64,000 nucleotides of DNA from Candidatus Collierbacteria bacterium RIFOXYD2_FULL_45_13 (GTDB lineage Bacteria > Patescibacteriota > Microgenomatia > UBA1400 > MFAQ01). This document shows, piece by piece, positions 8,016-50,459 of this stretch. Location: NCBI GenBank assembly GCA_001774685.1, contig MFAS01000001.1:897252-961251 (forward strand), written 5' to 3'. The translations under genes and the position numbers were made by a program. Every line of letters begins with the position of its first letter. The first letter of the stretch is position 1. Under the pieces are notes generated by a model. It was not told the DNA's origin and made no database searches. It was given only the letters and a program-made list of their open reading frames with translations.

Positions 8016-8086
8016 GCCGGGATAGTTCAGTGGCAGAACAGGTCATTGGTAATGACCAAACTCGAGTCCGATTCTCGGTCCCGGCT
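8016..8086 (+). tRNA. tRNA-Thr (anticodon GGU)
   Basis: Manual fold: acceptor GCCGGGA/TCCCGGC; D stem GTTC/GAAC; anticodon stem GGTCA/TGACC with loop TTGGTAA; T arm TCGAG-TCCGATT-CTCGG; no encoded CCA. Confidence 0.8.
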
Positions 8087-8110
8087 CACTGGTACAATTA
8101 ATCATCTCCT

Positions 8111-8193
8111 GCCGAGATGGTAGAGTGGTCAAATACTCGGGTCTGTAAAACCCGCGGCGCAAGCCTACGCAGGTTCGAACCCTGCTCTCGGCA
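8111..8193 (+). tRNA. tRNA-Tyr (anticodon GUA), type II with long variable arm
   Basis: Acceptor GCCGAGA/TCTCGGC; 3-bp D stem; anticodon stem CGGGT/ACCCG with loop CTGTAAA; T arm GCAGG-TTCGAAC-CCTGC. Confidence 0.85.
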
Positions 8194-8200
8194 CTAAATA

Positions 8201-8234
8201 AACATCCTCCCCTTGCGGAAGGATGTTTTATTTT
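8201..8234 (+). terminator. rho-independent terminator after the tRNA pair
   Basis: aacatcctcc...ggaaggatgtt hairpin followed by TTTTATTTT. Confidence 0.6.
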
Positions 8235-8240
8235 GACATT

Positions 8241-8346
8241 AAGCGGGGTTCGAACTGCCGGAGCCGAACACGTAACGTTTCCCGCGAGGCGGGGTGAGGC
8301 GATGTATCCGTCGACCGAACCTCGGAAAACCCTGCTCTCGGCACCA
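8241..8346 (+). other. partial duplicate of the tRNA-Tyr 3' end (GGTTCGAAC, about 75-nt insert, then CCTGCTCTCGGCACCA)
   Basis: The 17-nt 3' terminus accctgctctcggcac is repeated (8179..8195 and 8328..8344); the second copy ends with CCA. Confidence 0.35.
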
Positions 8347-8403
8347 AGGCACAGGTGGTAAAATTCACCAATCTTTGTTTGCATCTTAACATCGGAGGTA
8401 TCT

Positions 8404-8664
8404 ATGAACACCTTTCTTCTCGTCACAGACGTGGTTCTTTTAGCTATATTCGGAGCTTCCATGATCAGTGATTTCGTTCTTTTTGTCCACCAAGGCAGAC
8501 ATCTTGTTCCTTCTTATTATCAGACCATTTCCCTGATCTTTCTGCTTATGGGTATCGTTAATTTCGGCCTAATGGTCTTCATCAGTGAGCTGGCCTTCAA
8601 CCTCTTTCTAATCGCACTGGGGTGCCTATTCATCTCTGCTTGTTACGCATGGTGCGCCAGGTAA
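8404..8664 (+). CDS. small membrane protein
   Basis: SD GGAGG; 86 aa; 3 hydrophobic helices. Confidence 0.5.
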   Translation: MNTFLLVTDVVLLAIFGASMISDFVLFVHQGRHLVPSYYQTISLIFLLMGIVNFGLMVFISELAFNLFLIALGCLFISACYAWCAR

Positions 8665-8681
8665 CAACAAGGAGCCTCAAA

Positions 8682-9041
8682 ATGACTTTTCAAAGCGGTA
8701 GATGCGTGAACTGCGATTCGCCAATATCCACAGGCATTCTTTGTCAGAGTTGTACCCCAAGCGTGCCCAGCGTAGCAAACCGAGAGCCAACCATCGCTGA
8801 TATGACCTCCGGCCAATCAGGTTATGTGGCTGAATATGCTGTTTTTAAAGCCGAAGGCATGATCATGCTAGTCGGGTCAGCCAAAATCACCACAGAGATC
8901 AGCCGTTATCAGACCGTCCGAATTACCAAGCGGAATGATATTTACGAGGTCGATAGCCAGACCATCGCCAGTTGGGATATCTACGAGGGCTGGCCACAAG
9001 CAAAAGAAGACACCGACTATCTCTTGGCCAAGCTGGTCTAG
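8682..9041 (+). CDS. hypothetical protein with N-terminal zinc ribbon (CVNC...CQSC)
   Basis: SD AAGGAG at the correct spacing before the ATG at 8682. Confidence 0.5.
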   Translation: MTFQSGRCVNCDSPISTGILCQSCTPSVPSVANREPTIADMTSGQSGYVAEYAVFKAEGMIMLVGSAKITTEISRYQTVRITKRNDIYEVDSQTIASWDIYEGWPQAKEDTDYLLAKLV

Positions 9042-9063
9042 ACACTCAATAAAGGAGAACTGT

Positions 9064-9564
9064 ATGTTAATTTTCGCCCGTGGTTTTTCGGAACGTCTCA
9101 ATATCATTGCCACAGCCAATCGTCCCCCGGTGACCACCCTTTCCTTTGCCGAAATCACCGAGCTATGTAAGCTAGCCGGTTATCGTTTATCTAAGGTGAA
9201 CGAAACCATGTTCACCATCTTTCATCATGATGGCAAACACGGTCTGGACAATGGCCTCTATATCATCTGGCACGTCCTTCCGGACCACCGCGGTCTGGCC
9301 TACTATCCTACGTTGCAGCCGTTATATTCCCGCGGTAAAAATCATCAACTGCTGGACGAGATGCTAAAGCACCTTGCCTCGTTTTTGCCCAATATTGGGT
9401 TTAAGTCCGAGATTGTCTTCTCCCTCCAGGAAGAGATCGTGGTTCTTCCGGAAGAACTTAAAGCTCGTAACTCAGGCATTGAAGTTATGCTTCTTTCCGA
9501 GTTCCAAGCCAAGTACAAACCTCTTTACCGCTTCCTGCAAGAAAAAATGGTCACCCCTCGCTAA
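9064..9564 (+). CDS. hypothetical protein
   Basis: SD AAAGGAGAA; 166 aa; terminator at 9607..9633. Confidence 0.5.
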   Translation: MLIFARGFSERLNIIATANRPPVTTLSFAEITELCKLAGYRLSKVNETMFTIFHHDGKHGLDNGLYIIWHVLPDHRGLAYYPTLQPLYSRGKNHQLLDEMLKHLASFLPNIGFKSEIVFSLQEEIVVLPEELKARNSGIEVMLLSEFQAKYKPLYRFLQEKMVTPR

Positions 9565-9672
9565 TCACCAACCTCGCCACTCGTGGGCAGGGACAGCATT
9601 CATTCTAAAGCCGCGTAAACGCGGCTTTTTTTGTATCTAAATTTCCAAAAAATGGTAAAATTAGCTTCGTAA

Positions 9673-9748
9673 GGCCACCTTAGCTCAGTTGGCTAGAGCG
9701 CCAATTTTGTAAATTGGAAGTCCTGAGTTCGAATCTCAGAGGTGGCTC
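9673..9748 (+). tRNA. tRNA-Thr (anticodon UGU)
   Basis: Acceptor GGCCACC/GGTGGCT; D arm AGCTC-AGTTGGCT-AGAGC; anticodon stem CCAAT/ATTGG with loop TTTGTAA; T arm CTGAG-TTCGAAT-CTCAG. Confidence 0.85.
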
Positions 9749-9752: not shown

Positions 9753-10163
9753 ATGGATATGTGTCTTAATTGCGGACAAAATTTAAACAGACATCAATTT
9801 AAATATTGTTCAAACTTGTGTCAATCCAAAAAAAGACAGTTAGAGTACATCGAAAAATGGCAAAAAGGTAATGCTGATGGCTCAAGTGGTCTAGCCACAA
9901 AAAATATTTCAAGGTATTTAAAGCATTATTTGGAAGAAAAGTCTGGTAATAAATGTAGCTTGTGTGGCTGGAAGGAGAAAAATGTCAAAACCGGTAAGGT
10001 TCCACTTGAAATTGACCACATCAACGGAATAGCAGAGGATAATCGCGAGGAAAACCTCAGAATAATCTGCCCCAATTGCCATTCCCTAAGCCCAAATTTT
10101 AGAAACTTAAACAAAGGTCGAGGCAGGTCCTGGCGAACAAAAAAATATCTTAAAAATAAGTAG
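9753..10163 (+). CDS. HNH endonuclease
   Basis: Motif EIDHINGIAEDNREENLRIICPNCH plus an N-terminal CxxC pair; starts 5 nt after tRNA-Thr. Confidence 0.75.
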   Translation: MDMCLNCGQNLNRHQFKYCSNLCQSKKRQLEYIEKWQKGNADGSSGLATKNISRYLKHYLEEKSGNKCSLCGWKEKNVKTGKVPLEIDHINGIAEDNREENLRIICPNCHSLSPNFRNLNKGRGRSWRTKKYLKNK

Positions 10164-10336
10164 CGACCAAAACCACCCTCTAACTACTATATATGTCCAA
10201 AGAAATTGATCCTAGACAAGCCATTTATTCTGCTCAAACAATTGTTCAGGAGATGCGGGGCTTTTTCATATAAAATATACCCTGACTTCCCCACTGTATA
10301 ATCCATAACATACACTTTGAAATAAGGAGATTGCCT

Positions 10337-10570
10337 GTGAGTATCACCACCTTACTTCCTGTCGTCTTGTACGTTCTGATCGCCATCGAAATCACCATCA
10401 CTCTATTCACTGACGCACTCAAGAGCAAACCACTCACCTCTATTGTTTTGATCATTGGAATAGCTATCAGTAGCCTACTTTTTGCCTTAAACAGCCCATT
10501 CGTTGCCATCTGTTGGCTGTCTCTCCCCACCATAGCCACATACAACCTACTCAAACTGTACCGTAAGTGA
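10337..10570 (+). CDS. small membrane protein (GTG start)
   Basis: SD AAGGAG 7 nt before the GTG; two TM helices; terminator at 10575..10600. Confidence 0.45.
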   Translation: MSITTLLPVVLYVLIAIEITITLFTDALKSKPLTSIVLIIGIAISSLLFALNSPFVAICWLSLPTIATYNLLKLYRK

Positions 10571-10608
10571 TCCTCCACCCGCCCTAAGGTGGGTTTTTTT
10601 ATTAATAT

Positions 10609-11328
10609 TTACTTAAAATCCGCGCCGACCATAATCATCAAATCCGCCTTCGGATAAGTTTCTGCAGACTGTGTGGCGACTTCACCGCCTACCAGCTGAG
10701 CCATCTCAGCCGCCTGTTTACCCAACTTCCCAGTCAAATCCACAACTAGCGTTTTTTCATAAGCATCGGACTTCGCCGTCGCCTTGGAAACTATCGAGAC
10801 ACCGGGAATGTTCTTCTCTACAATTCTTTTCTCCAACTCATTAGTTATACCCGAGTTTTTTGAACCATTTACCAGTGCTATTTTCAAGGGATTTCTTTCA
10901 TCTACTCCACTTATAGATATCTGTTGATTCCCGATATTCACCGGAACAACATCTACCAAAAGGTTTGTCGACGGCCGATAAATGTAAGCCTTTTGCGCCT
11001 TCGAATATATCAGGATCTTGTCACCATTCTCGGCCCTAGCAAATACGGGTTGGTCTTTCAGCTTTTCTTTGTCCGTCACCGTCGCCACCACCGGCTCTTC
11101 ATCAGCAGGTAAAACTACTAATTTTGCAAGTTTCTCTGTCAGCATCTTTATTTCCTCCCTAGCTACGCTGTTCGGATCTTTCTTCAAAGTTTCAATCTCT
11201 ATACCCAATCTTTTATTCTGCTTTGATAGCCGAAAGGAGTTTAGTGTTAGCCCTCCAATTACTACGACTACTCCAATTGCTAAAAGCTGAGCTTTTGACA
11301 GTTTGATCATTTGTACTAAATTTAACAA
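10609..11328 (-). CDS. LytR_C-domain (LytR/CpsA/Psr C-terminal) membrane-anchored protein
   Basis: N-terminal TM anchor, coiled-coil region, C-terminal NGSKNSGITNELEKRI...VVDLTGK segment resembling the LytR_C domain. Last gene of the minus-strand operon with the giant protein. Confidence 0.5.
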   Translation of the reverse strand: MLNLVQMIKLSKAQLLAIGVVVVIGGLTLNSFRLSKQNKRLGIEIETLKKDPNSVAREEIKMLTEKLAKLVVLPADEEPVVATVTDKEKLKDQPVFARAENGDKILIYSKAQKAYIYRPSTNLLVDVVPVNIGNQQISISGVDERNPLKIALVNGSKNSGITNELEKRIVEKNIPGVSIVSKATAKSDAYEKTLVVDLTGKLGKQAAEMAQLVGGEVATQSAETYPKADLMIMVGADFK

Positions 11329-11353
11329 ATAATTAATAAATTTACAAGTTTTT

Positions 11354-14300
11354 TCACAATTGAGCGCTTGATGAAGCCATTGGTGTAACCTCCGGCGTTA
11401 TTTCCACAGTCGGTGTCGGTGTAGGCGTCGTCGTGATTATCAATGCTGGGGTAGTAGTCGGGGTGACCTCCGGCGTTATTTCCACAGTTGGTGTAGGAAC
11501 GGGAGTCGCCTGAGAAGACGGCCCTTGAGTGCTCACGGCACCTTGCGACTCTATTGACTTGGCATCTTTAACGGCTATGGCTATCCAGGCGAATCTAAGG
11601 TCCATACCTGCTACTTTGTTCATTCGGATCTTGAATCCTTTAGTGTTCACATCAGCGACTGCATGGGTCGGCAGATTATTCATATCCACGGCTCCGACAA
11701 TCTGTAGAGTCACATTTACCACCGGCTCGTTTGCATATTCTTTCTCAAACTTTACTTCCACTTCATTACTGTCTCCTTTGATGATGGCAAACCCGGCCGT
11801 GTCTTTGTTAAAGGTTGGTCTACCGACAAAGAAAACATCGCCGTGGAAAATTACTTTGTCAAAGAACTCGGCCACATTTCTGAACAGGTTGTTGACAATA
11901 TCGGACATGGATAAAGATTTATTCTCTGCGCTCGGTGTTGCCGTGGCACTTGAAGTCGCAATACCCGCCACCTTGTCAGAAAGCGTCGTAATACTATCCG
12001 CCATTAGTTTGAAGCCCTTGATCTCATTAGCTTCTATCTTGTCGGCCTTGATTGTTCCCATAAAGATAGCGTTTCCGTCGGAGGTGATCTTTACATTCTC
12101 ATTCCCCTCTTTGTCCTGCATCACAAACATGCCGGTAGCCAATATATCTTGTGTGATTACTTTAGGAGTAATCACTTCCAGTCCCGCTACCACTCTATCG
12201 GTCATGATTTCCGAAATATTGGCCGAAGTTGAAGCAATCTGTTCTTTTTCCAGCACCAAGTTGTTTAGCACTTGAGATTTGTAGTCACCGCTAGTTTCAT
12301 CCAGTCCTTTCATGACACTAGCCAATTTACTGCCGCTACTCTCACCGTTTTTGACAAAGGCTAGCACCAAACCCACACCCTGTCCGTTAAAGTCCGACAT
12401 CGCATTACCGATAATCGCTCCCGCTTTGGTCGCTTTCATAGCGATACCAGGTACTGATGAGGTAGTCAGCAAATCCCCCGCCTTGATGGCACCGTTTTCC
12501 GTATTTACCTTCACCGGAACTCTACCCGACAAAGCCACCGGTACAGCTGAGGCACCTTCACCATCTGTTCCACCAATTGTTAATGCTGGTGCGGTTGAAA
12601 CAATTCCCAGTACTGAAGGATCGTATCTTCCCTCAGATTTCTTCACTCCGGCTCTCAGGGATGAATCCAGACTCACCACATCTCCCATTGCGATAGACTT
12701 ATCATTGGTAGAATATATCTCCGCCAAGTCGGCCGTGCTATTTGTCACTTCAATCAAAGTAATGGTCGCGTCTGTCTTTGTTGGGATACTACCCAAAGTA
12801 GAATTGACACTTGAACAAAGCGTGTATCGGACATTGCTGGTCGATGCCGGTGAGTCTAGAAATGCCAAGGTAGCTGTCCCTTCTGCACCCGCACTCGAAA
12901 AGAATTTCCCAAATGAACCATCCACCTGATTTGATGGTGGATTTACACACGTTGGTGTAGCTCCGATACCTCTTCGAATAGTTCCTACGGCATCGGTATC
13001 GCCCGCACCCCCGGCCGCTATTACCACCTCAACCATTACCAATACAGAGTTTGACGCCGAAGTTGGGGTAATATTGGCTCTGGTAGTCGGTGTTGTAAAG
13101 AACTCAGTCACATTATCATCGCTCCATGCCACATCCGCCGGATCATTGAAACTTCTGGTTTGCAGCACATTCTCATTGGCACAGCTAAATAAATTGGTCG
13201 AAGAGTTCCATTGTAGTTTTTGATTGGTTCCGGTACAGCTTGTTAGTCCACTGCCCTGGGTTGTCGTAAAGTTTGCTTGTCCAGCCGCACTTATTGACCA
13301 ATCGTTGCCTCCAGTCATAGCCAGAGTTGTCGCCGCATTACTGTTTCCAATCGAGACTACATCTGCTGCTGTACCATTGGTAGCTATATTGATAGTGTCT
13401 GTTCCTGAATTGGTCACTCCTCCAATGTCTATTGTCTTGGTGTTGGCATTGTCTCCAAAGTTTATCCCTCCGGTACCTGTATCAAAGTTCAAAGCGGTTG
13501 CTCCAGTGGTATTTCCAAAAGTTATGGTCTTTGCGTTTGCCCCTGTCCCAATACTTATTCCCCCGGTTGTACCCGAATCAATAGTTAAAGCGCGAGCAGC
13601 CGTAGAAGTGATGTCTGTCCCGATAGTTCCGTTAAACATTATCCCATTGGTCACTGTTCCGGCTGTTCTCGTGATATTCAAACCACTTGTCATTGTCCCT
13701 GCCCCAGTTTGCTCGATCAATAATCCATTGGTTAATGTCCCGCTCGCGATAGAATTAAATATTCTTTGAGAGGAAACTCCGGCGGTATCTTGATTTTCCA
13801 AAGTAAATGATGTGGGAGTTGTCACCTCTCCTAGCGTGAACTCAATATTCCGAGCATCAGTTGTGGTAAGCGTATTACCGTTATCGTATGCGACCTGCAA
13901 TGTCGCTGTTCCTCCACCGGTTTGATCAGACGCACAAGCCCATCCACCAGCATCAGTCCATTTCAAAAGTTCTCCGTCAGCGCATCCTTTTAATAAAGTC
14001 AGTCCTGATAAGGAAACTTCTAGACCAGAATCTGACGATGCCAATCCGGTTGTGCCGGATGTCGTTAGATTTATACCCAAAGCATTTGAAGAATTTGTTA
14101 ATCCGTTGCCTGTTAAGTCGGTAAACAAATCACTTCTAAGTTTTAGGGTAGATGAGAAAGTTGCATCTCGACTGATCAAACCTTGGAATCCTCCAACTCT
14201 AGTAACTACGTCTGATTGTTGATCTAAAATATCGGTCGAACCGGCCACAGAAAAGGCAGGGAACGCAAGTAAGACATCGGGATCATACCAGCCGGGTACT

Positions 14301-42010: not shown

Positions 42011-42021
42011 TGTTCCTCCTT

Positions 42022-42243: not shown

Positions 42244-42388
42244 GGTATCTCCTCTTTTTACAGTTTTTCAGGTACGAACAAAACATTCTAACGCCCTATA
42301 ATACCACAAACACGCTCAAAAGTCAAGCTGCCAGACACGCATCCAGGTACAAAAAAGAGGGGGTACTTCCCCCTCTGAGCGAACGACT

Positions 42389-42550
42389 TTACCGGTGAAA
42401 AACAAAATAGAAGAAAATCGCCACAAACGCCACAAACAAGATAAAGGCGAGCACAAAACTGATCATCCCGGCGAAGTGGAGCCACAAAATAACGGCACTT
42501 ACCATTGCGGGGATGACAAAGAATACAGAGATTGCTTTTAATCCAGCCAT
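42389..42550 (-). CDS. small membrane protein (53 aa)
   Basis: SD GGAGAAACA before MAGLKAIS; the same terminator hairpin as at 41745 is repeated at 42357..42377. Confidence 0.4.
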   Translation of the reverse strand: MAGLKAISVFFVIPAMVSAVILWLHFAGMISFVLAFILFVAFVAIFFYFVFHR

Positions 42551-42981: not shown

Positions 42982-43080
42982 TCCAACCATCCTCCAAAAA
43001 ATTTTTTAAAGATCAGGACGTATTTTACATCAAACTTGACGGCCGTCCCCATTTCTGCCATATTTAAATCACACCTAGTT

Positions 43081-43437
43081 ATGAAAAACCTTAGCGGTCA
43101 AGAATCACTTTGGGTCGCTTTCCCCATCCTTGTTGTCATCCTCATTCTCATTGCCGGGCTAATCTTTCTGCCTCGTGTCCAAACCGAGATCCGTAGCAAA
43201 GCTTCCGAGCCCACTCCCTCAGTAATAATTACCCCAAGGAGACTCACACCCGCACCGGCTCCTGAAATTGTCTGCAGTGCTCTCTATAGCCCAGTTTGCG
43301 GCGCCAACGGCGTTACCTACCCCAACTCCTGTGAGGCCAATCTGGCCGGAATCACGAACTATTTGGAAGGAAAGTGTGTGAAACCAACCACCACCAAAAC
43401 CCCTGCTCTTCAGTACAATCTACCCACCACCAATTAG
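43081..43437 (+). CDS. secreted or membrane-anchored Kazal-type serine protease inhibitor domain protein
   Basis: N-terminal TM or signal anchor, then CSALYSPVCGANGVTYPNSCEANLAGITNYLEGKC (PVCG-x-NG-x-TY-x-N-x-C Kazal core). Confidence 0.55.
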   Translation: MKNLSGQESLWVAFPILVVILILIAGLIFLPRVQTEIRSKASEPTPSVIITPRRLTPAPAPEIVCSALYSPVCGANGVTYPNSCEANLAGITNYLEGKCVKPTTTKTPALQYNLPTTN

Positions 43438-43745
43438 CTAGACAAATCCCTTAGATTGATACCGTCCGGAAAAATCATTTTCCTAATTTCTTCGTCGTTT
43501 ATATCACCTGGATTAAATACGTAGTAGACATCTCTACCTCCTCGAACATATGTCCTGGCCTCACCGTTTGCCACAAACGAGTCCCCAAGCACCGTAAGTA
43601 AACCAGTATACAAATTGACCAATACTCCACCTTCTTTAACACACAGATAAAAACTGCCCTTCGGAACCATGTCGTAAGTCGAAACCATCACTCGCCCCAA
43701 ACTCCATTTTTTTTCCAACTTCTCGTTTTCCCTACCCATACCCAC
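43434..43745 (-). CDS. hypothetical protein
   Basis: 103-aa ORF. Confidence 0.4.
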   Translation of the reverse strand: MGMGRENEKLEKKWSLGRVMVSTYDMVPKGSFYLCVKEGGVLVNLYTGLLTVLGDSFVANGEARTYVRGGRDVYYVFNPGDINDEEIRKMIFPDGINLRDLSS

Positions 43746-43813
43746 AATTTAGCATATTTCATCGAACCGGGTGTAAAATACTATATCGAGTAAAGTAATT
43801 TAACATTAAGGAG

Positions 43814-44272
43814 GTGGCCATGTCTGACCAGTTCATGTCCTATCAAGGATATTCCGGCCCATGCACTTTCAAAGTTCAAGGACCAAACTCATTATTTTAT
43901 AAGGGTGTGGCGAATAACAATGCGCAAGTATTTACAGTACCGGGCGTAGGAACAGTTTCCATCTACGATTTTCGCCCAAACACCATCCGCGCAGTCTCAA
44001 CGGCCGTGCTGACCGGGGATTTTGGTCCGGTAATCAAGGCCTTCAAACAAACCGCTTCGGTAACTGTCAGCCAGGAAGCCGGACATTTCTACATTGAAGT
44101 TGAACCCATCAACTCCTGGTTCCTTAGATTTCTGGCTTGGTTAGGCAGCAAGAAAACCATCTGGATCTCTACCAACGTCGGTCAGAGCCTACCCATAAAG
44201 AGTTATCTTTTTTGCGAGCACTTCCGAGCTCGTGGCCACCGGTTTTCGGTTTTTAGTCTCTACACCCGATAA
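43814..44272 (+). CDS. hypothetical protein
   Basis: SD AAGGAGG. Confidence 0.5.
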   Translation: MAMSDQFMSYQGYSGPCTFKVQGPNSLFYKGVANNNAQVFTVPGVGTVSIYDFRPNTIRAVSTAVLTGDFGPVIKAFKQTASVTVSQEAGHFYIEVEPINSWFLRFLAWLGSKKTIWISTNVGQSLPIKSYLFCEHFRARGHRFSVFSLYTR

Positions 44273-44286
44273 AGGATGGGTTCTCA

Positions 44287-44627
44287 TGGAACTACAAAAA
44301 TGTAGGGCTGTAATTGGCGTCTATCGCACCAATCACCCCAATTGGCATCAGGCACAGACTGACTACGCCATTTCAACGCTCGGACTGTCACTAGACGAGT
44401 ATATTGGGTCGGTAATTCTAATGAATTACTATTTTCAGAGTATGGGAATAATTTCCGACTTTGTCGTCAAGGTAGCGGGTAGACTCGAGAAGCCACCCAA
44501 GCTCAATAAAGCCAACTTCTACAAGGCGGTGGAGATAGCTTCGAAAATAGCAGCGCTAGGAATGAACTCAGAGGCGGATTTAACGTCCGCAATTCATAAA
44601 TTCAAAGAAGTCATGCGCCTCGAATAG
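44287..44627 (+). CDS. hypothetical protein
   Basis: Terminator 44639..44663. Confidence 0.45.
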
Positions 44628-44736
44628 ACCTCAAACTTCTCGCCGTAAGGCGGGAATTTTTGTACGCGTAGTTTGACTTCCACGCACAATTGTAGTACAC
44701 TACAGGACATCTGCTCACTTTCACAAAGGAGACAAC

Positions 44737-45111
44737 ATGCTTCGCAAATTGATTCTTTTTTTCATTCGCTGGCTCGCTCGTTACAATAATGAGATTATCC
44801 TCGAGAACAAACATCGAGGCATTATGATCGTCAAGCTCGACCGCTTAATTTTCGATGTTGACAGCGCATTCAAGGCAGGAAAAATTGGCCGTATTGTGCA
44901 CGAATTGTTGACCGAAAAGGGTCTTACCCCGGCCACCGAAGTCTACTATGCGTCCAGGCGGGCGAGCGATATCGGCCAGCTCAACCAATTTGACTGTGTC
45001 GAAATCATGTTTGCCACGGATCTTGAAGCTGCCCAAAAAGACCCCGAATATCACTTCCTGGTCATGAACGCCCCAGCTGCCTTCATCCAGCCCATCACCA
45101 CTCCAAAATAA
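44737..45111 (+). CDS. hypothetical protein
   Basis: SD AAAGGAGA; terminator 45129..45154. Confidence 0.5.
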   Translation: MLRKLILFFIRWLARYNNEIILENKHRGIMIVKLDRLIFDVDSAFKAGKIGRIVHELLTEKGLTPATEVYYASRRASDIGQLNQFDCVEIMFATDLEAAQKDPEYHFLVMNAPAAFIQPITTPK

Positions 45112-45347
45112 CCACCTCTTCCTCCAACTCTCCCCTTGCCGCGTTCCCACGCGGCATTTTTTGTGCTAAAATCTCTCTACCTCGTCATTGATGAGGGAGC
45201 TACTCGAAAAGAGTCCGCGAACTAAGTCAAACCACTGATTTCTATATCGTCGCCACCCGGCCGACTTATTCAAAACCCCTTTTCGCGTCAGCCACATAAT
45301 ACATGCAAATGTAAAATGTAAAATTATAAATATAAAATATTTTTCTT

Positions 45348-45773
45348 ATGGCCAAAAAAGTCAAAGCCATCCTGAAGCTCAACCTTCCCGGTGGTACCGC
45401 CAATCCCGCTCCTCCTGTAGGTCCAGCACTAGGTCAGCACGGTGTCAATATCATGGAGTTCATCCAGCAATACAACGCCAAGACAGCCGACATGAAAGGT
45501 CAGGTCATCCCCGCCCTCGTCACCATTTACGAAGATCGTTCCTTCAAGTTCGAGCTCAAGACCCCTCCGGTTTCCGCCCTCATCAAACAAGTTTTAAACC
45601 TTAAGCTTGGTTCCGGCGAACCAAACAAAAAGAAAGTTGGCACCATTACCAAGGACCAAATTCGAGCTATTGCCGAGAAAAAAATGGCCGACATGAACAC
45701 GAGCAACGTGGAATCCGCCATCAAAATGATTGAAGGCACATGCAAGTCCATGGGTATAACAATTGCCGAATAA
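45348..45773 (+). CDS. rplK: 50S ribosomal protein L11
   Basis: [38 protein letters not shown]... Confidence 0.92.
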
Positions 45774-45778
45774 CTACT

Positions 45779-46648
45779 ATGACAAAAATAAACTGGAAAG
45801 AACTCTACTCCGATCTCCCCACCCACGTTGCCGAAGCGCTTCGCGAGGCTCGTTTGAAGCCCGAACAGATCATTGCCAAAGAAGACGGTGAACTCATGGC
45901 TATCAATGGCATCACCGAAAAAGATGTCGAGTCTATTCGCCTTCTCTACAATGCGGAGACTGTCAAAGTTGATGCGGTCACCGCTTCACCCACCGTCCCT
46001 GGCGAAGTCGAAGCTACCGAAGAAGTCAAACCCAAGAAGGTCATTGCTCCCAAAAAGCATGGTAAGAAGTACAAGATGATGGCCAAAGAAATCAAAAAAG
46101 ACGAAATGTACTCCATCGAAGATGCTGTAGCCAAACTTCAAAAACTTTCTCAGAACTCCAAACTTAAAACCGTCGAACTCACGATCAACACCCGCGAAAC
46201 AGGACTGCGCGGAGAACTAAAACTCCCCCACAGCACAGGTAAAGAAGTAAAAATCGCCATTTTCTCGGACCAAGTCGCCAAGGATGTAGAAGCAGGAAAA
46301 ATAAACTTCAGCATACTCCTGGCAACTCCGGCCGACATGCCCAAACTGGCTCGACTGGCAAAAATACTTGGACCCAAAGGTCTCATGCCTAATCCCAAAT
46401 CGGGCACCGTCACCGACAATCCTGAGAAAAGAGCCGCCGACCTCGCCGCCGGAGGAACCTTGCCTTACAAGACAGAGGCCAAGTTCCCCATTATTCATCT
46501 GGCTCTGGGTAAATCTACTCAAGACGCCAAAGATCTGGTCGAAAATATTACCGAAGCCCTCAAGGCTATCGGAGCCACCAGAATCAAAAACGCCTACCTC
46601 TCTTGCACTCACACTCCCAGCATGAAGATCCATCTCGGAGCGCTGTAA
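45779..46648 (+). CDS. rplA: 50S ribosomal protein L1 with about 95-aa N-terminal extension
   Basis: Canonical L1 body starts at KKYKMMAKEIKK...GPKGLMPNPKSGTV; the preceding in-frame segment (INWKELYSDLPTHVAEALREARLKPEQ...) is not part of standard L1. Confidence 0.88.
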   Translation: MTKINWKELYSDLPTHVAEALREARLKPEQIIAKEDGELMAINGITEKDVESIRLLYNAETVKVDAVTASPTVPGEVEATEEVKPKKVIAPKKHGKKYKMMAKEIKKDEMYSIEDAVAKLQKLSQNSKLKTVELTINTRETGLRGELKLPHSTGKEVKIAIFSDQVAKDVEAGKINFSILLATPADMPKLARLAKILGPKGLMPNPKSGTVTDNPEKRAADLAAGGTLPYKTEAKFPIIHLALGKSTQDAKDLVENITEALKAIGATRIKNAYLSCTHTPSMKIHLGAL

Positions 46649-46772
46649 CCCCTCGTCACCACACATACACCAACAAAAAATCCTCCGCATGGAGGATTTT
46701 TTGATGCTAGCAATGCTATAATTCCAACTATAAGACAGAAAGCCGTCAAACTTTAATTTTTCAGGAGGTACT

Positions 46773-47000
46773 ATGCACATTCTTACCGCGACTCTGATTT
46801 TCGGGGTTGTGCTTACTACCACGATCCTTTCGATCAATGCCATGGTAAACGGTAATCCTGCCGCGAAGCATCTTCGATGTCGGTTTGGATTCCATCCTTA
46901 TACCGACGGTGTTGACCGATTCCCCGGGCAGCTTTTCTGTCCTCTTTGCGAACAGACTACGCCGGATGAGGAGCCATATTCTGACGATTATTACGACTAA
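46773..47000 (+). CDS. small TM protein with C-terminal CxxC
   Basis: SD CAGGAGG; terminator 47001..47028 (atcccgtaccaagtacgggat). Confidence 0.45.
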   Translation: MHILTATLIFGVVLTTTILSINAMVNGNPAAKHLRCRFGFHPYTDGVDRFPGQLFCPLCEQTTPDEEPYSDDYYD

Positions 47001-47080
47001 ATCCCGTACCAAGTACGGGATTTTTTGTACTACTCTAACCACAAAAATGGGGTGCCGTAAGGCACCCCAAAAACAGAAAA

Positions 47081-48757
47081 CTAAAAGATCATCGCGATAA
47101 ACCAGATCGCGGTGACAAGCGGGTAAAGTACCATGAGGGCAAACGACATGGCGTCGTACCGGGAGTTTACCTTCCAGCGATTGGTGAAATCGTCTTGAGG
47201 TCCACTCGATCGGCCTTCGTGGTTAGAAGGCTCCTGCTTTCCCACAAACGCGGTTCCGTTGGCTGTTTCGGGGGGCATGATGGCCGTGGAGATAAAATCT
47301 CCACCCACATAGGCAATACCCAAACCGATCAGAGCACCAACAAAAACACGTCCGGTGAACAGCGCGGTGAAAAAGAATTGTTGGATCAGCGGCATCGAGG
47401 CAGACGCCGGAGGCACCAAACCCAGCAGGAAATAGATCAACCAGGTTATACCTCCAAGAATCAAAATCATGATGAGTGCCGTCAGCAGACCGCGGAGGCC
47501 TTGATGAGTTCTGCTCATCTCTTTCGCCTCCAAGAAGATTCCGGCCGCCATGAGGATTGCACCGAGGACAACCAGGTAGGTACTTGGGGTGAACCACCAA
47601 ATAATCACCACACCGGTGATAAACAAGCCGGCTACAGCCAAGGCGGTGTAATCGATACGTCCTGCCGTTGAGGCTTGCCAGTTTGACCACAGGTTTATCA
47701 CGATCCCCATCAAAACAAATGGCCAAGACTCCACCACGTAAGCGTTTCCCACAGCCGCGAGACCCGCGGTAATTACAGTCGCAATCAGCTTCCCGCCCAA
47801 CACACCGACAAACAAGGCTATCAGCCCGCGTTTCGCCGCTTTAACGTCCGTCACTTCTTCGGCCGCTAAACGATCCTGTTTCAATAGCGTCCAAAGCATA
47901 ACGATTGGAATGATCCACAACAGCCATCGCGTCGGAAAGCGCTTGAAGAGATAGTTCGGACTATTCGGGTCGTTAATCACAGGCTTGTCCAAGAAAGCGC
48001 CGCGCTCTTCGCTGCTTTTCGCATTCAGTGACAAGAACTCTTGCCAGCGGCTTTGTTCTGCAGAAGGCTGCTGGGTGGGTACGACACCAGGTTGAGTCGG
48101 AACGACCGATTGGGTGGGTTGGCCACTGGCTGGAGTGTTTCTGGGAATGTAATCACCACCACCTCCACCAGAGATCGAGAAGTAAGCAACTCCACCACCA
48201 ACCAAAAGGAGAATGACGATCGCGATGATCGCGATGGTCAGGCCCTTTTTCTTGGCTCCGGCAGGCTTTTCAGCTGCCACAGCCGCCTCAGAGGGGGTGC
48301 CTTTTTTGGGCCAAATCCCCTTAAGGAAGCCGCCCTTCGGCGTAGACTCCGGATCAGCCTTCTGGCGCCGACCGGTGCTCTTCTTAATCGCAGGTTGCTC
48401 AGCAGAAACGTTTTCTGCAGCTGGTGACGGGGCTCCGCGTTTCATACGCAGGGCTTCGGAACGAGTTAGTTTGCCCACGCCACCAGCCTTTGGAGCAGGA
48501 GGCACGGCAGGAATAGCCGATGCCGGTGGGGGCATCGGAATGGCAGCTCCCGGCTTTTGCACCGGGGTATCGTCCGATCCCTTCAAATACTCGAGCATTT
48601 CCTGACCAGTCCAGCTTCCCTTCAAGGCATCATCAATCACCTTGTCGGCATCGGCACGAACACTTAAAAGTCCATAGATATTCGACAGTGCCTGGCCTCT
48701 AATTTTGGCTTTCTCATTCACCCATTCACGAAATTTGGCGCTATCAGTGACTGCCAT
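47081..48757 (-). CDS. polytopic membrane protein with N-terminal cytoplasmic domain and a Pro/Ala-rich linker, hypothetical
   Basis: 558 aa; about 8 TM helices; minus-strand terminator ggggtgccgtaaggcacccc at 47049..47068. Confidence 0.6.
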   Translation of the reverse strand: MAVTDSAKFREWVNEKAKIRGQALSNIYGLLSVRADADKVIDDALKGSWTGQEMLEYLKGSDDTPVQKPGAAIPMPPPASAIPAVPPAPKAGGVGKLTRSEALRMKRGAPSPAAENVSAEQPAIKKSTGRRQKADPESTPKGGFLKGIWPKKGTPSEAAVAAEKPAGAKKKGLTIAIIAIVILLLVGGGVAYFSISGGGGGDYIPRNTPASGQPTQSVVPTQPGVVPTQQPSAEQSRWQEFLSLNAKSSEERGAFLDKPVINDPNSPNYLFKRFPTRWLLWIIPIVMLWTLLKQDRLAAEEVTDVKAAKRGLIALFVGVLGGKLIATVITAGLAAVGNAYVVESWPFVLMGIVINLWSNWQASTAGRIDYTALAVAGLFITGVVIIWWFTPSTYLVVLGAILMAAGIFLEAKEMSRTHQGLRGLLTALIMILILGGITWLIYFLLGLVPPASASMPLIQQFFFTALFTGRVFVGALIGLGIAYVGGDFISTAIMPPETANGTAFVGKQEPSNHEGRSSGPQDDFTNRWKVNSRYDAMSFALMVLYPLVTAIWFIAMIF

Positions 48758-48940
48758 TTTTCACCTCCAATAAATACAGATTTGTTAAAGTCCCATCTCC
48801 TCAAAGGATTTGAGTCGACATTGTCCTGAATTATACTACTTTTTCCACTCGTCAAGCCGATAATAAGCTGTACCAAGCATCACCTGCCCTCCATATAAGA
48901 TACTAAAGAGCCCCGCCGTTAGGCGGGGCACATAATAAAT

Positions 48941-49360
48941 TCATCGCAAAAGGAAGGTCATCAGCCCGTTTCGGGTCGTTACTTCTACAACATCCAAATC
49001 AGTTAAGGACTTGATGATGGTTAGAGGGTTATCAATCCGTTCGATACGTGCCCAGGCCAGGAAATCTTCACGGCACATTCCACAGAAAGACAATGCGATC
49101 AGGGTCTTGATTTGTTGTTCATTCAAGCGGAGCCTTTGATCAAGCAACTCCACCGTGAACTGTGGATATGCTTCAGCCTTGGCGACGATAAGGCCCATAT
49201 CCAGTAGTGTTCTCACATCTCCGGCACGATGGTTGATTTCCCACTGAGGCACGGACACCGGTCCCTGAAGCACCTGTCTCCACAAAGAAGCGGCGTGCTG
49301 GGGTACGCTGATCTTGGTCAATCTTCCTCCTGTAAGGGTGCAAGGTTGTCGAACCTCCAC
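48941..49360 (-). CDS. hypothetical protein (GTG start; start uncertain)
   Basis: ORF with a minus-strand terminator gccccgccgttaggcggggc downstream. Confidence 0.35.
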   Translation of the reverse strand: MEVRQPCTLTGGRLTKISVPQHAASLWRQVLQGPVSVPQWEINHRAGDVRTLLDMGLIVAKAEAYPQFTVELLDQRLRLNEQQIKTLIALSFCGMCREDFLAWARIERIDNPLTIIKSLTDLDVVEVTTRNGLMTFLLR

Positions 49361-49394
49361 ATTTTACCATCCCCCGCTACCTCCGGGTGCTCTC

Positions 49395-49423
49395 TTGCAT
49401 TTTCTACCCCATCACTCTATAAT
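49395..49423 (+). promoter_or_regulatory. sigma70-like promoter TTGCAT-17-TATAAT for rplJ-rplL, followed by an approximately 100-nt leader
   Basis: Near-consensus boxes. The L10 operon typically carries an autoregulatory leader. Confidence 0.5.
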
Positions 49424-49521
49424 CCCCTTTAGTTCCAAGACCAGAGGCAATCATTAAGCCCTCTGCAGAACCTTCATAAGGCTCTCTTGAAATGGAGCTA
49501 TTTTTGTACCAAAAAAACAAC

Positions 49522-50046
49522 ATGCCAAACCAAAGAAAAGTCCACCAGCTCGCCGAAATCGTTAAAAGCCTAAACGACTCTAAAGCCATTATCCTTACCG
49601 AATACGCCGGCCTGACCGTCAAAGAACAAAATATGCTCCGCACCGAGGCTGACAAAATCGGAGGAAAGTTTCTGGTCACCAAGAATAACCTTATGCGTCT
49701 GGCTCTCGAAGAAAAATCAAAAGAGTTGGCAAAAGATCTAGGTTCCTTCCTCGAAGGACCTACTGCCGTTCTTTTTAGTCCCGACGCAGTTTCCGCCGCC
49801 AAAATTGTTTCGAAGTTCACCGATGATCACGAAAAGCTTAAGATAAAAACCGGTGTCATGGACGATAAGATAATCACTTTCGCCGAAATCACGGCGTTGT
49901 CCAAGCTCCCAAGCCGCGAACAGCTTCTGGCGTCCCTCTTGGCCCAGCTCCAAGCCCCCGCTCAGGCCTTGGTCCGACAGCTCCAAGCCCCTATGCAAAG
50001 CTTCGTCTACGGCTTGGAAGCCCTCCGTGCCAAACTCTCTGCTTAA
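49522..50046 (+). CDS. rplJ: 50S ribosomal protein L10
   Basis: MPNQRKVHQLAEIVKSLNDSKAIILTEYAGLTVKEQNMLR... Confidence 0.9.
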   Translation: MPNQRKVHQLAEIVKSLNDSKAIILTEYAGLTVKEQNMLRTEADKIGGKFLVTKNNLMRLALEEKSKELAKDLGSFLEGPTAVLFSPDAVSAAKIVSKFTDDHEKLKIKTGVMDDKIITFAEITALSKLPSREQLLASLLAQLQAPAQALVRQLQAPMQSFVYGLEALRAKLSA

Positions 50047-50081
50047 TCAGTCTCGCAAATTATTAAATTAAATAAACAAAC

Positions 50082-50459
50082 ATGTCCGAGAAAGTCACAA
50101 AACTCGTTGATCAAGTAAGCGAACTCTCCGTTTTGGAAGTTGCTGAGCTTGTCAAAGCTTTAGAGGAAAAGTTTGGTGTCTCTGCCGCTCCAGTCGCCGT
50201 CGCCGGTGGCGTAGCCGCAGCCGCCGCTGCTCCTGCTGAGGAAAAGACCGAATTTGACGTCGTCGTCACTGACGCAGGCGCCAATAAGATCGCCGTTATC
50301 AAAGCTGTCCGCGAGATCAAAACCGATCTAGGTTTGGTCGAAGCCAAAAACTTGGTTGAGAAAGCCCCCGCTACCATCATGGAGGGAGCCAAGAAAGAAG
50401 ACGCCGAAGCCGCTAAGAAGAAACTCGAAGAGGCAGGTGCCAAGGTCGAACTCAAATAA
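50082..50459 (+). CDS. rplL: 50S ribosomal protein L7/L12
   Basis: Ala-rich hinge and the C-terminal [20 protein letters not shown]...[10 protein letters not shown]. Confidence 0.93.

Follow-up and report, generated by a model that had tools for sequence, protein, structure and literature searches.

Old and differently filled spacers in the tRNA-rpmG-secE-nusG-rplKAJL gene string of a Candidatus Collierbacteria genome

Introduction

The window analysed here is a stretch of 64,000 nucleotides from the genome of Candidatus Collierbacteria bacterium RIFOXYD2_FULL_45_13 (contig MFAS01000001.1), a small bacterium from groundwater. Between positions 8016 and 50459 it carries tRNA-Thr(GGT), tRNA-Tyr, tRNA-Thr(TGT), rpmG, tRNA-Trp, secE, nusG, rplK, rplA, rplJ and rplL, collinear and on the + strand. 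The string is spread over 42 kb, with 38.9 kb of non-string DNA between its units, and the question raised by the locus is how so much other DNA came to lie between genes that have kept their order. In E. coli the tRNA genes are ordered thrU(UGU)-tyrU-glyT-thrT(GGU), and secE-nusG, rplKA and rplJL form units with their own promoters, under autoregulation by L1 and by L10-L12. A sequence-only reading of the window had taken the gaps as six accessory insertions, with the promoter neighbourhoods of the tRNA and ribosomal protein genes seeming to act as landing pads. We find that the layout is a product of ordinary genome evolution and not of fresh insertion of mobile DNA.

Results

The string and its junctions

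The tRNAs were called by ARAGORN and Rfam and the protein-coding members of the string were confirmed by Pfam (Table 1); together they bear out the gene order read from the sequence, with every member on the + strand. The six gaps measure, in order, 1479, 10241, 4901, 15346, 4050 and 2843 nt, in agreement with the insert sizes first given. Only secE-nusG and rplK-rplA had been listed as closed, but four junctions are intact, since Thr-Tyr (23 nt) and rplJ-rplL (35 nt) are tight as well. No member of the expected synteny block is missing from this strand, and the canonical order is kept except that the Thr isoacceptors are reversed, and the tight pairs secE-nusG, rplKA and rplJL are kept here (6, 5 and 35 nt) and likewise in relatives. 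The members are not contiguous, being separated by gaps of 1.5-15.3 kb, and rpoBC and tuf are absent. Six separate blocks that remain collinear on one strand are far beyond chance, and the description of the string as an ancestral synteny block holding non-string genes whose content differs between genomes is upheld.

Table 1. Features of the string, its gaps and their contents (positions in the window).
Feature	Position	Strand	Called by	Remarks
tRNA-Thr(GGT)	8016-8087	+	ARAGORN, Rfam	
tRNA-Tyr(GTA)	8111-8194	+	ARAGORN, Rfam	
Gap 1	8195-9673	+		1479 nt; three small ORFs: 8404-8664, 8683-9041, 9064-9564
Strong terminator	9607-9628			closes the gap 1 ORF row
tRNA-Thr(TGT)	9674-9748	+	ARAGORN, Rfam	
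HNH endonuclease gene	9753-10163	+	Pfam, PHROGs	begins 4 nt past tRNA-Thr(TGT)
Rest of gap 2	10246-19788	-	Pfam	
95-aa ORF		-		gap 2
LytR_C-like gene	10609-11310	-	Pfam	gap 2
Giant protein gene	11354-17806	-		gap 2; 2150 aa
HTH_17 + dCache membrane protein gene	17824-19788	-	Pfam	gap 2; 654 aa; divergent from rpmG
rpmG unit	19990-20950	+		rpmG; paralogous ORFs 20236-20589 and 20617-20922; terminator 20929-20950
rpmG (L33)	19990-20163	+	Pfam	
Rest of gap 3	20953-25064	mixed	Pfam	
C39-like peptidase, Ddl-like ATP-grasp and GNAT genes		-		gap 3
ORF of no assigned family	22910-23524	+		gap 3
Coiled-coil ORF	24669-24962	+		gap 3
tRNA-Trp(CCA)	25065-25138	+	ARAGORN, Rfam	
Gap 4 cargo	25146-39408	mixed	Pfam, paralog comparison, composition	includes M20 peptidase (-), histidine phosphatase (+), several genes of no assigned family
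Three tandem membrane paralogs	29632-30985	+		gap 4
High-GC patch	32.1-34.7 kb			gap 4; GC 0.62-0.64
CofD/YvcK-like gene	38115-39122	+		gap 4
Small gene	39151-39393	-		gap 4
Structured non-coding RNA	39441-39951	-	blastn, nhmmer, covariation, covariance model	
Small gene	39986-40369	-		strong terminator 39979-39960
secE-nusG	40485-41297	+		6 nt apart, intact
secE	40485-40670	+	Pfam	
nusG	40677-41297	+	Pfam	
Gap 5	41298-45347	mixed		4050 nt; about nine ORFs
Kazal-domain gene	43081-43437	+		conserved gap 5 resident
rplK-rplA	45348-46648	+		5 nt apart, intact
rplK (L11)	45348-45773	+	Pfam	
rplA (L1)	45779-46648	+	Pfam	
Gap 6	46649-49491			2843 nt; three ORFs, each with its own terminator
75-aa ORF		+		gap 6
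Gene for 558-aa protein of no assigned family	47081-48757	-		gap 6
126-139-aa ORF	48941-49360	-		gap 6
rplJ-rplL	49492-50459	+		35 nt apart, intact
rplJ (L10)	49492-50046	+	Pfam	
rplL (L7/L12)	50082-50459	+	Pfam	
Bidirectional terminator	50479-50556			after rplL

The proposed match to thrU-tyrU-(glyT)-thrT stands for the order of gene types and fails for the Thr isoacceptors, which here run GGU-Tyr-UGU, the reverse of both E. coli and the related locus L060. An anticodon switch was ruled out, as the tRNAs cluster by anticodon, and the reversal is a positional swap. As claimed, tuf and tRNA-Gly are missing from their slots: ARAGORN calls no tRNA-Gly in the window, and tblastn with an E. coli EF-Tu query found no match there or in 101 related loci (L001-L101, Patescibacteria except two). 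With tuf having no place here in any of the 101 loci, the lack of it does not set this genome apart. Nor is rpoBC found 3' of rplL, where it would be expected from the conserved locus; apart from the giant protein (2150 aa) and the HTH-Cache protein (654 aa), nothing in the ORF list is longer than 560 aa, and the junction counts as a seventh break beyond the six listed earlier.

The two ORFs behind rpmG are indeed paralogs (31% identity, E 1e-9), and with rpmG they probably form one transcript ending at a single terminator. The paralog is single-copy in L081-84 and L089, which marks the pair as a tandem duplication. Intrinsic terminator-like sites bracket each module and are enriched (34 against 15.0 +/- 3.6 expected; 28 against 18.2 +/- 4.6). 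Gap 5 holds two identical 28-nt terminators (41736-41763 and 42349-42376), and a further one (45137-45156) lies directly before the rplK promoter-like site. Rfam searches at gathering and relaxed thresholds detected no L10 or L11 leader RNA, their hits being limited to tRNAs and terminator-like noise. In a PDB alignment L1 proves to be extended at its N terminus by about 90 aa. Taking transcription units from gene spacing and consensus scans, we infer that the string is broken only between units.

Age of the breaks and turnover of the gaps

Relatives share both the interleaved order and the residents, so the idea of six insertions peculiar to this genome is not supported. The order is ancestral to the lineage, which is largely the outcome that the sequence-only reading had itself named as counting against it. 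All Collierbacteria loci sampled (NusG 74-99% identical) have the same breaks with the same residents: the giant and HTH-Cache genes before rpmG, the C39, GNAT and Ddl genes after it, CofD before secE, the Kazal-like gene between nusG and rplK, and a small gene on the minus strand between rplA and rplJ. The giant gene, the HTH-Cache gene and rpmG are neighbours throughout Collierbacteria (L023, L081-84, L087-88, L091-92), except that L085 lacks the giant gene. The C39, GNAT and Ddl genes follow rpmG in all Collierbacteria loci in an order that varies relative to tRNA-Trp, which is itself inverted in L010, L023, L091 and L093. In the more distant L101 (NusG 66% identity) the whole string, flanks included, occupies 11 kb and the same junctions are already open. 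Its flanks are also the same, with a g7386 homolog upstream and MerR/HTH_17, WecG, MreB, PEGA and NDK downstream. These loci show the breaks to be ancestral, with the fill of each gap being what differs.

The nusG-rplK junction is open in every genome with NusG of at least 65% identity; it is tight in L107 and L108, where it measures 20-22 nt, and about 40 loci of the Parcubacteria type have 36-195 nt there. Where gaps are open their size ranges widely, from 279 to 7306 nt for nusG-rplK and from 1359 to 3713 nt for rplA-rplJ, the latter reaching about 8 kb in the P0096 contig. Many accessory families lie between these persistent core genes: 56 families among 85 ORFs from 19 genomes in the first gap, and 15 among 28 ORFs from 11 genomes in the second. 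Toxin-antitoxin, Fic and NfeD/Band_7 genes are among the cargo of the string's junctions in relatives. The Kazal-like gene is found in 13 of the 17 genomes in which the nusG-rplK gap is open, the 48941 family of gap 6 in 6 of 11 genomes, and the 558-aa family in three. CofD lies 5' of secE in Collierbacteria, L101 and the P0096 contig, the rpmG-secE distance being 20.3 kb here against 6.8-9.2 kb in other Collierbacteria. secE and nusG are 4-61 nt apart in nearly all relatives.

At the tRNA end, the Thr(GGT)-Tyr pair occurs in the same order in L101, L107 and L085. From tRNA-Tyr to tRNA-Thr(TGT) there are 3 nt in L101, whereas in L107 this junction has about 2.3 kb and contains two Ddl-like genes. 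All three ORFs of gap 1 are present in same-species contigs; the one searched for in other species' loci, at 9064-9564, had no homolog there, and the HNH gene is missing from the other species' loci compared. Inversions affect the Thr-Tyr pair in L085 and the whole tRNA-rpmG block in L107 and L060. The string has expanded 3.8-fold relative to L101 and the downstream flank only 1.6-fold, a hint that DNA gain at the string's junctions may be above average.

The same-species contigs returned (L075-L080 and L102-L105, from several samples) have an identical layout. The exact NusG sequence occurs in 39 blocks of the public collection, and the exact protein of ORF 9064-9564 in 56. A chimeric contig joining unrelated pieces between core genes had been raised as an explanation; with the same layout in dozens of independent assemblies, whose contigs of 0.34, 1.08 and 1.09 Mb stem from several samples and were built by different assemblers, it is refuted, and its likelihood is practically nil. 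Our search for literature on Collierbacteria synteny found no papers.

Tests for mobile DNA

Among about 50 ORFs of the 7.3-52.1 kb region (all but a few small ones), Pfam, PHROGs and PADLOC identify no integrase, transposase or recombinase. PADLOC and PHROGs searches of the larger cargo proteins of no assigned family for defence and phage families also found nothing, leaving the HNH gene as the sole selfish-element-like gene of the region. No repeats bracket the gaps; the repeat search gave terminator families, chance-level pairs and a tRNA-Tyr fragment. This last, at 8328-8347, repeats 20 nt of the 3' end of tRNA-Tyr (19/20 match, including CCA) and lies 133 nt downstream of that gene. As a lone tRNA-derived repeat (8178-8197 and 8328-8347) it brackets 130 nt and none of the gaps, unlike an att pair.

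The sequence-only reading had proposed GC-skew and codon-usage profiles as a check on the inserts. The cargo does not look foreign, with a GC content of 0.46-0.53 against 0.49 for the core, matching GC3 and the same negative GC skew. Exceptions are the HNH gene, with a GC content of 0.36 and a positive skew, and the high-GC patch of gap 4. The presence of cargo was also compared between genomes, where the same-species contigs returned are identical and, across species, some cargo is clade-wide and some is unique. The tRNA-Tyr 3' duplicate and the HNH gene at tRNA-Thr show that site-specific or selfish elements acted at tRNA junctions at least.

A structured RNA upstream of secE

The RNA gene on the minus strand a short way upstream of secE encodes a clade-wide, strongly covarying and previously unannotated structured RNA. 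Its core, about 165-180 nt long, occupies 39746-39926, and a structured 3' extension of about 310 nt, conserved in this sub-lineage only, reaches to about 39441. A promoter-like element (TTGACT-N17-TTAAAT, 39949-39921) is found on the same strand. The gene is 85-88% identical between species by blastn, with homologs also found by nhmmer and a covariance model, and among the relatives matched by the latter two it is always near secE. The 39986-40369 gene is a sub-lineage insertion between the two. Most of the 25 homologs folded singly form a long rod with a large internal loop, and the helices on either side of the loop covary.

No Rfam family, 6S included, matches the RNA at E values up to 10 in the window or up to 5 in eight relatives. 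It resembles 6S RNA in the size of its core, in its fold into a long imperfect rod that is opened at the centre by a large bubble, about 15 nt on either side, in having its own promoter-like element and in being conserved as a stand-alone gene. However, it differs in the lack of an Rfam 6S match and in the conserved extension of about 310 nt. Superficially similar motifs (GGGGAAAGAUCC, GAUGAUUGCUGUC) raised the possibility of RNase P, tmRNA or SRP RNA. These were ruled out, ARAGORN and Rfam being negative, a tRNA-like end being absent and the motifs standing in a strand order at odds with the P4 helix of RNase P. A 5' leader of secE was ruled out by the opposite strand, and a leader of the downstream small gene by L101, L107 and L108, in which no protein gene follows the RNA. 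Our literature search on structured RNAs of the CPR found nothing relevant.

Discussion

The explanation that we favour, with a probability of roughly three in four, is that these are old open spacers of a conserved string, refilled lineage by lineage under a selective filter. The string would consist of several independent transcription units, whose spacers would already have held residents in an ancestor of a broad Microgenomates clade: a Kazal-like gene downstream of nusG, CofD and the structured RNA upstream of secE, small genes on the minus strand ahead of rplJ and, around rpmG, genes for the cell envelope. Each spacer would later have grown or shrunk in each lineage by gene gain, tandem duplication, replacement with divergent alleles and deletion, giving 42 kb here against 11 kb in the compact relative. 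The junctions that never open would be those inside co-transcribed, translationally coupled units, which stay closed because an insertion there would break co-expression and autoregulation and be removed by selection, while an insertion between units that brings its own promoter and terminator would be nearly neutral. The pattern would then mainly reflect a selective filter on ordinary insertion and deletion, and active targeting of promoters would not be required as the route by which DNA entered.

The landing-pad idea of the earlier reading, taken further, would have tRNA genes and the promoter regions of ribosomal protein genes actively attract accessory or mobile DNA, in six separate and fairly recent landings. 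The HNH gene of foreign composition directly 3' of tRNA-Thr(TGT), the tRNA-Tyr copy, the 9064-9564 ORF without a homolog in other species, the high-GC patch and the toxin-antitoxin and Fic cargo of these junctions in relatives speak for it. However, the bulk of the inserted length is syntenic clade-wide, by which the idea is largely refuted for most of the DNA; neither integrases or transposases nor flanking direct repeats delimit any gap, the DNA is native in composition and skew, and the layout is identical in every same-species contig returned. A specific attraction of these promoters is not supported, as junctions between non-string neighbours vary too (MerR-WecG, for example, from 0 to 2333 nt), and we consider this explanation unlikely. 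Integrative elements and islands that target tRNAs share with the locus some cargo abutting tRNAs, including an HNH gene, and the duplication of 20 nt from a tRNA 3' end, but differ in that here there is neither integrase nor att pair, composition is native and most cargo is conserved clade-wide.

Alternatively, the junctions could be hotspots of exchange without mobile elements, where DNA acquired from related species replaces the cargo by homologous recombination in the flanks; such swapping is conceivable because the tRNA and ribosomal protein flanks are extremely conserved. Hotspots of this kind and how they work have been set out for 80 species (Oliveira, Touchon, Cury, Rocha 2017, PMC5635113), and they resemble the gaps in being core-bounded intervals, some tRNA-adjacent, with high cargo diversity and turnover and no integrases. 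The very high diversity of both gap inventories fits this, as does a bimodal identity of cargo: identity of the 36033-36650 gene is 86% to L002 but 37-39% to L001, L003 and L026, and the 558-aa protein matches its L001 counterpart at 24%, next to an L1 of 84% and an L10 of 96%. Published hotspots are, however, defined within species against a genome-wide background, while the present comparison runs between species and genera over 10-kb flanks of related genomes, and the stable resident of each gap is atypical of a pure hotspot. Against exchange also stand the variable non-string junctions, the flanking core genes, whose identity is 75-88% all along with no stretch of unusually high DNA identity from recent exchange, and the many single-genome ORF families that may not be real genes. 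We regard exchange of this kind as somewhat unlikely.

A functional or regulatory tie, keeping residents beside the translation genes so that the interleaving would be adaptive and not neutral, is quite improbable. Its candidates are the Kazal-like, CofD/YvcK-like, C39/GNAT/Ddl and HTH-Cache genes and the RNA, which hold their positions from 65% to 100% NusG identity, with HTH-Cache always divergent from rpmG and the RNA gene never far from secE. Most residents, however, are encoded on the other strand or set off by terminators of their own, genomes differ in how the residents are ordered relative to tRNA-Trp, and plain inheritance in small, rarely rearranging genomes also predicts a conserved neighbourhood.

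The old, refilled spacers are best seen against the conserved tuf/rpmG-tRNA-Trp-secE-nusG-rplKAJL-rpoBC locus. Content, order and strand agree from rpmG to rplL, as do the upstream tRNA-Thr/Tyr genes and, as in the E. coli operons, the tight pairs secE-nusG, rplKA and rplJL. The locus here differs in lacking tuf, tRNA-Gly and rpoBC, in its reversed Thr order and in the 38.9 kb between units. Breaks between rplKA and rplJL have been recorded in Bradyrhizobium and Actinomyces (PMC12993453), but six or seven in one string are an extreme case.

The locus is an example of where a conserved string can break, with unit boundaries opening and coupled pairs never doing so, and a layout that looks accessory can be hundreds of millions of years old within a lineage. 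In the CPR, variable and mostly secreted or membrane cargo genes sit beside the most conserved genes, which makes the latter handy anchors for comparative and population study of gene turnover in unculturable organisms. As a by-product, the analysis yields a covarying, unannotated RNA gene near secE that is conserved in Collierbacteria and related Microgenomates. More speculatively, and with a rather low expectation, the string could be a scaffold for exchange hotspots free of mobile elements and, as a separate matter, the 6S-shaped RNA a possible new housekeeping RNA of the Microgenomates. If true, the hotspot scaffold would explain why different cargo is found at the same junctions across lineages while the core stays collinear.

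Layout of the string

The string of tRNA and ribosomal-protein genes is ancestral and still collinear in the window (Table), with caveats that concern the order of tRNA isoacceptors and inversions in relatives. Its units are separated by six gaps of, from 5' to 3', 1479, 10241, 4901, 15346, 4050 and 2843 nt, exactly the sizes claimed in the sequence-only reading. That reading left only secE-nusG (6 nt) and rplK-rplA (5 nt) unbroken, but Thr-Tyr (23 nt) and rplJ-rplL (35 nt) are also intact, giving four closed junctions. It correctly described tRNA-Gly and tuf as missing from their slots, as neither tRNA-Gly (by ARAGORN) nor EF-Tu was found in the window. In all 101 related loci tested tuf is absent from the string neighbourhood, so that its absence belongs to a phylum-level arrangement and not to this genome. 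The window ORF list contains no ORF 3' of rplL with a length that would fit rpoB or rpoC, which represents an additional, previously unlisted break.

Features of the string and its gaps, in window coordinates
Feature	Position	Strand	Basis or remark
tRNA-Thr(GGT)	8016-8087	+	ARAGORN, Rfam
tRNA-Tyr	8111-8194	+	ARAGORN, Rfam
Copy of tRNA-Tyr 3' end (8178-8197)	8328-8347		19/20 nt including CCA
tRNA-Thr(TGT)	9674-9748	+	ARAGORN, Rfam
HNH endonuclease gene	9753-10163		GC 0.36 vs 0.47
Giant protein	11354-17806	-	2150 aa; weak collagen(-repeat), H-lectin (H-type lectin) and peptidase-G2 matches (Pfam)
L33 (rpmG)	19990-20163		Pfam
tRNA-Trp	25065-25138	+	ARAGORN, Rfam
Three small membrane-protein paralogs	29632-30985		30-32% identity
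High-GC patch	32100-34700		62-64% GC, GC3 0.76-0.79
RNA gene	39441-39951	-	Unannotated structured RNA; core 39746-39926
SecE	40485-40670		Pfam
NusG	40677-41297		Pfam
Identical 28-nt terminator hairpins	41736-41763, 42349-42376		613 nt apart
Conserved DNA 5' of rplK	45163-45292		Between species
L11 (rplK)	45348-45773		Pfam
L1 (rplA)	45779-46648		Pfam; N-terminus 45779-46050
Conserved DNA 5' of rplJ	49382-49471		Between species
L10 (rplJ)	49492-50046		Pfam
L7/L12 (rplL)	50082-50459		Pfam
Terminator-like hairpins	9607, 20929, 23531, 44637, 45137, 46999, 50479
Terminator-like hairpins	47069, 48929, 50556	-

The two ORFs that follow rpmG are paralogs of each other (31% identity, E 1e-9), as had been proposed. 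Their co-transcription with rpmG is plausible, inferred from the one strong terminator (20929-20950) common to all three genes. The L1 protein is 289 aa long and matches solved L1 structures from residue 93 onward. L1 measures 286-297 aa in relatives with NusG identities as low as 65%, and has the usual size of 236 aa in L107 and L108, two more distant loci, which makes the N-terminal extension of about 90 aa particular to the clade with NusG identity of at least 65%.

Age of the breaks

In the genome collection, the matches to the NusG query were 82-99% identical and came from Candidatus Collierbacteria, a CPR lineage in Microgenomates. In the public collection 39 blocks index the exact NusG protein and 56 the exact 9064-9564 protein, on contigs that include ones of 0.34, 1.08 and 1.09 Mb (GCA_001774675.1, MFAP01000001.1). 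The gene layout is identical at all places among the same-species matches listed (L075-L080, L102-L105), and its recurrence in separate contigs of up to 1.09 Mb rules out a chimeric assembly, a possibility raised with the sequence-only reading.

To compare gene order, all window proteins were mapped by tblastn and all tRNAs by ARAGORN onto 108 related loci. The interleaved order is shared by all Collierbacteria loci, junction by junction, wherever a locus spans the junction. On the rpmG side it runs giant protein(-), HTH_17-Cache(-), rpmG(+), C39(-), GNAT(-), Ddl-like(-), tRNA-Trp, and on the secE side further genes, CofD, secE, nusG, Kazal-like, rplK, rplA, a small minus-strand gene, rplJ and rplL. 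Among these genomes the nusG-rplK gap is shortest in L020 (530 nt) and longest in L013 (7306 nt), and the rplA-rplJ gap ranges from 2013 to 3713 nt, while rpmG and secE are 20.3 kb apart in the window versus 6.8-9.2 kb in five other Collierbacteria. The giant gene always adjoins the HTH-Cache gene in Collierbacteria, but it is deleted in the close relative L085 (HTH-Cache 90%, Ddl 95%), which also lacks LytR_C and HNH and in which the comparison points to gene loss.

A more compact form is found in L101 (NusG 66% identical), which has the same flanking genes on both sides and the entire string in 11.15 kb, compared with 42.44 kb in the window. Its spacers are 3 nt for Tyr-Thr, 1.25 kb for Thr-rpmG (two minus-strand genes), 54 nt for rpmG-Trp, 4.7 kb for Trp-secE (sigma-70, CofD and the RNA gene), 270 nt for nusG-rplK (a 74-aa Kazal-like ORF) and 1.36 kb for rplA-rplJ. 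In L107 and L108 (NusG 61-63%) nusG and rplK are 20 nt apart, yet a gene of about 650 aa lies between rplA and rplJ, and L107 carries two Ddl-like genes inside the Tyr-Thr(TGT) junction. In about 40 Parcubacteria-type loci secE-nusG-rplK-rplA is tight, and no rplJL, rpmG or tRNAs were detectable within 10 kb. The breaks are thus old and nested: the rplA-rplJ break and those around rpmG are older than the clade, and the nusG-rplK break originated in the common ancestor of the loci whose NusG is at least 65% identical. The sequence-only reading had itself named such an ancestral interleaved order as grounds for rejecting it, and the idea of recent insertions is largely refuted.

The claim that the string was kept in order stands for the window as a whole, but not for every element. 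The window's Thr isoacceptors (GGU-Tyr-UGU) run opposite to those of L060 and of E. coli, where the order is thrU(UGU)-tyrU-glyT-thrT(GGU), and since tRNA-Thr sequences cluster by anticodon this reversal is a positional change. Among relatives tRNA-Trp is inverted in L010, L023 and L091, the Thr-Tyr pair in L085, and the whole tRNA-rpmG block in L107 and L060.

Content and turnover of the gaps

Pfam identified an HNH endonuclease, a LytR_C-like protein, HTH_17 plus dCache, a C39-like peptidase, a Ddl-like ATP-grasp protein, GNAT, an M20 peptidase, a histidine phosphatase, a CofD/YvcK-like protein and a Kazal domain among the cargo genes, the others including many small membrane or unknown proteins. 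No integrase or transposase was among the Pfam-identified cargo, PADLOC and PHROGs searches of the larger unknown cargo proteins gave no defence or phage genes beyond HNH, and no direct repeats flank any of the six gaps. Cargo GC (0.46-0.53) and GC3 match those of core genes (GC 0.49, GC3 0.56), and the GC skew of the plus strand is strongly negative and uniform across both.

The nusG/ribosomal-protein coding strand is C-rich throughout, with a skew of -0.04 to -0.32 in every 2-kb window, including where genes lie on the other strand, and each of the 66 related loci above 8 kb in length (among L001-L074, L099-L101, L106-L108) likewise has a negative skew. As the leading strand is usually G-rich, either these highly expressed genes may lie on the lagging strand or the rule may be reversed in this group.

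The composition outliers are the HNH gene and the high-GC patch. The HNH gene is free-standing, begins 4 nt past tRNA-Thr(TGT), has positive skew and matches phage HNH families; other species' loci spanning the site yielded no homolog, and it is therefore probably a recent selfish arrival. The copied tRNA-Tyr 3' end, 133 nt 3' of the tRNA gene, does not bracket the 1.5-kb gap and looks like either a tRNA remnant or the scar of an earlier site-specific event, whether integration or excision. Such putative traces of site-specific or selfish activity are seen only at the tRNA end of the string. The high-GC patch (32.1-34.7 kb, GC 0.62-0.64, in a 47% GC genome) has long ORFs on both strands, one of which (33731-34642, minus strand) has homologs 26-64% identical in several Collierbacteria; it is possibly a later acquisition.

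Growth of the gaps by local tandem duplication is visible in three places: the rpmG-linked paralogs, which are single copy in L081-84, the three membrane-protein paralogs, and the paired terminator hairpins. Outside the string, upstream of a radical-SAM gene, lies another small membrane-paralog array (591-827 and 1223-1450, minus strand; 75-86 aa, 48% identity between two of its members).

Turnover can be measured at the fixed junctions. The nusG-rplK gap of 19 genomes holds 85 ORFs of at least 70 aa in 56 families, of which 48 occur in a single genome and only a Kazal-like family is widespread (13 genomes), while the rplA-rplJ gap of 11 genomes holds 28 ORFs in 15 families. In other lineages the same junctions are occupied by NfeD plus Band_7, ParE plus Fic, BrnT/CopG, or an 8-kb block that includes an M23/amidase/SLT protein. 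Some cargo genes share just 24-39% identity between species whose NusG is 97-99% identical, and their flanks 84-99%. Hotspots that lack mobile elements and owe their diversity to recombination in the core genes on either side have been described (PMC5635113), and the turnover, as seen across species only, fits this picture. Junctions outside the string vary as well (rplL-MerR 103-609 nt; MerR-WecG 0-2333 nt, with few visible), and the sole hint of excess DNA gain at string junctions is a 3.8-fold expansion relative to L101, versus 1.6-fold for the downstream flank. Between WecG and an MreB-like gene, an AT-rich stretch (52150-53700, 34% GC, very low GC3, short ORFs only) is missing from the compact relatives L101 and L108.

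A structured RNA upstream of secE

In window coordinates, the first 360 nt of 39441-39951 contain no ORF of at least 50 aa, although the stretch is 85-88% identical between species, about the conservation of nusG DNA. With nhmmer and a covariance model we detected the RNA gene in all Collierbacteria loci as well as in L099, L100, L101, L106 and L024; its orientation is constant and it lies just 5' of secE each time. Matches are weaker in L107 and L108 (E 1e-4, 5e-5) and marginal in L060 (E 0.3), directly adjoining a tRNA-Thr gene in L107 and L060, and none was found in Parcubacteria-type loci. In the 165-nt core on the minus strand 93% of cells are paired compared with 84% in shuffles, and 17 of 31 pairs show compensatory changes; none of 500 shuffles reaches the observed values and slid controls score much lower. 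The many conserved G-U pairs fix the predicted strand as minus, on which a conserved promoter-like TTGACT-N17-TTAAAT, read from the sequence, lies upstream.

When the 25 homologs are folded one at a time, most are predicted to form a single long rod that opens at its centre into a bubble of about 15 nt per side. This is the architecture of 6S RNA, but no Rfam family matches. The 310 nt 3' of the core are also conserved and covarying in this sub-lineage, and a minus-strand gene (39986-40369) is inserted between the RNA gene and secE. This unannotated structured RNA, which covaries strongly, occurs across Collierbacteria and related Microgenomates. A near-threshold type III hammerhead ribozyme match (42 bits vs a gathering score of 48.5, E 8e-6) lies at 5187-5241 (minus strand) of L106, a related Microgenomates contig.

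Origin of the break pattern

In E. coli secE-nusG, rplKA (L1 autoregulation) and rplJL (L10-L12 autoregulation) each form a co-transcribed unit with translational coupling. Junctions inside such units always stay closed, and those that open are boundaries between them. Terminator-like hairpins bracket each module and are enriched about twofold over shuffled sequence (34 vs 15.0, and 28 vs 18.2), and the conserved short stretches just 5' of rplK and rplJ are consistent with retained promoters or leaders. Insertions within a co-transcribed unit would be lost, while self-contained insertions between units would persist and build up. As breaks are limited to unit boundaries and terminators bracket the modules, we interpret the pattern chiefly as the work of a selective filter. 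The proposal of six accessory insertions at landing pads is thus only partly supported: cargo does turn over at fixed junctions, but the lineage inherited the breaks from its ancestor, the bulk of the cargo is native and has resided there for long, and active targeting is unproven.

Separation of rplKA and rplJL is already known in Bradyrhizobium and Actinomyces (PMC12993453), and the locus is extreme but not new in kind. Of most interest are the unannotated RNA beside secE and the fact that, in a CPR lineage, turnover of cargo can be measured at junctions that stay fixed.
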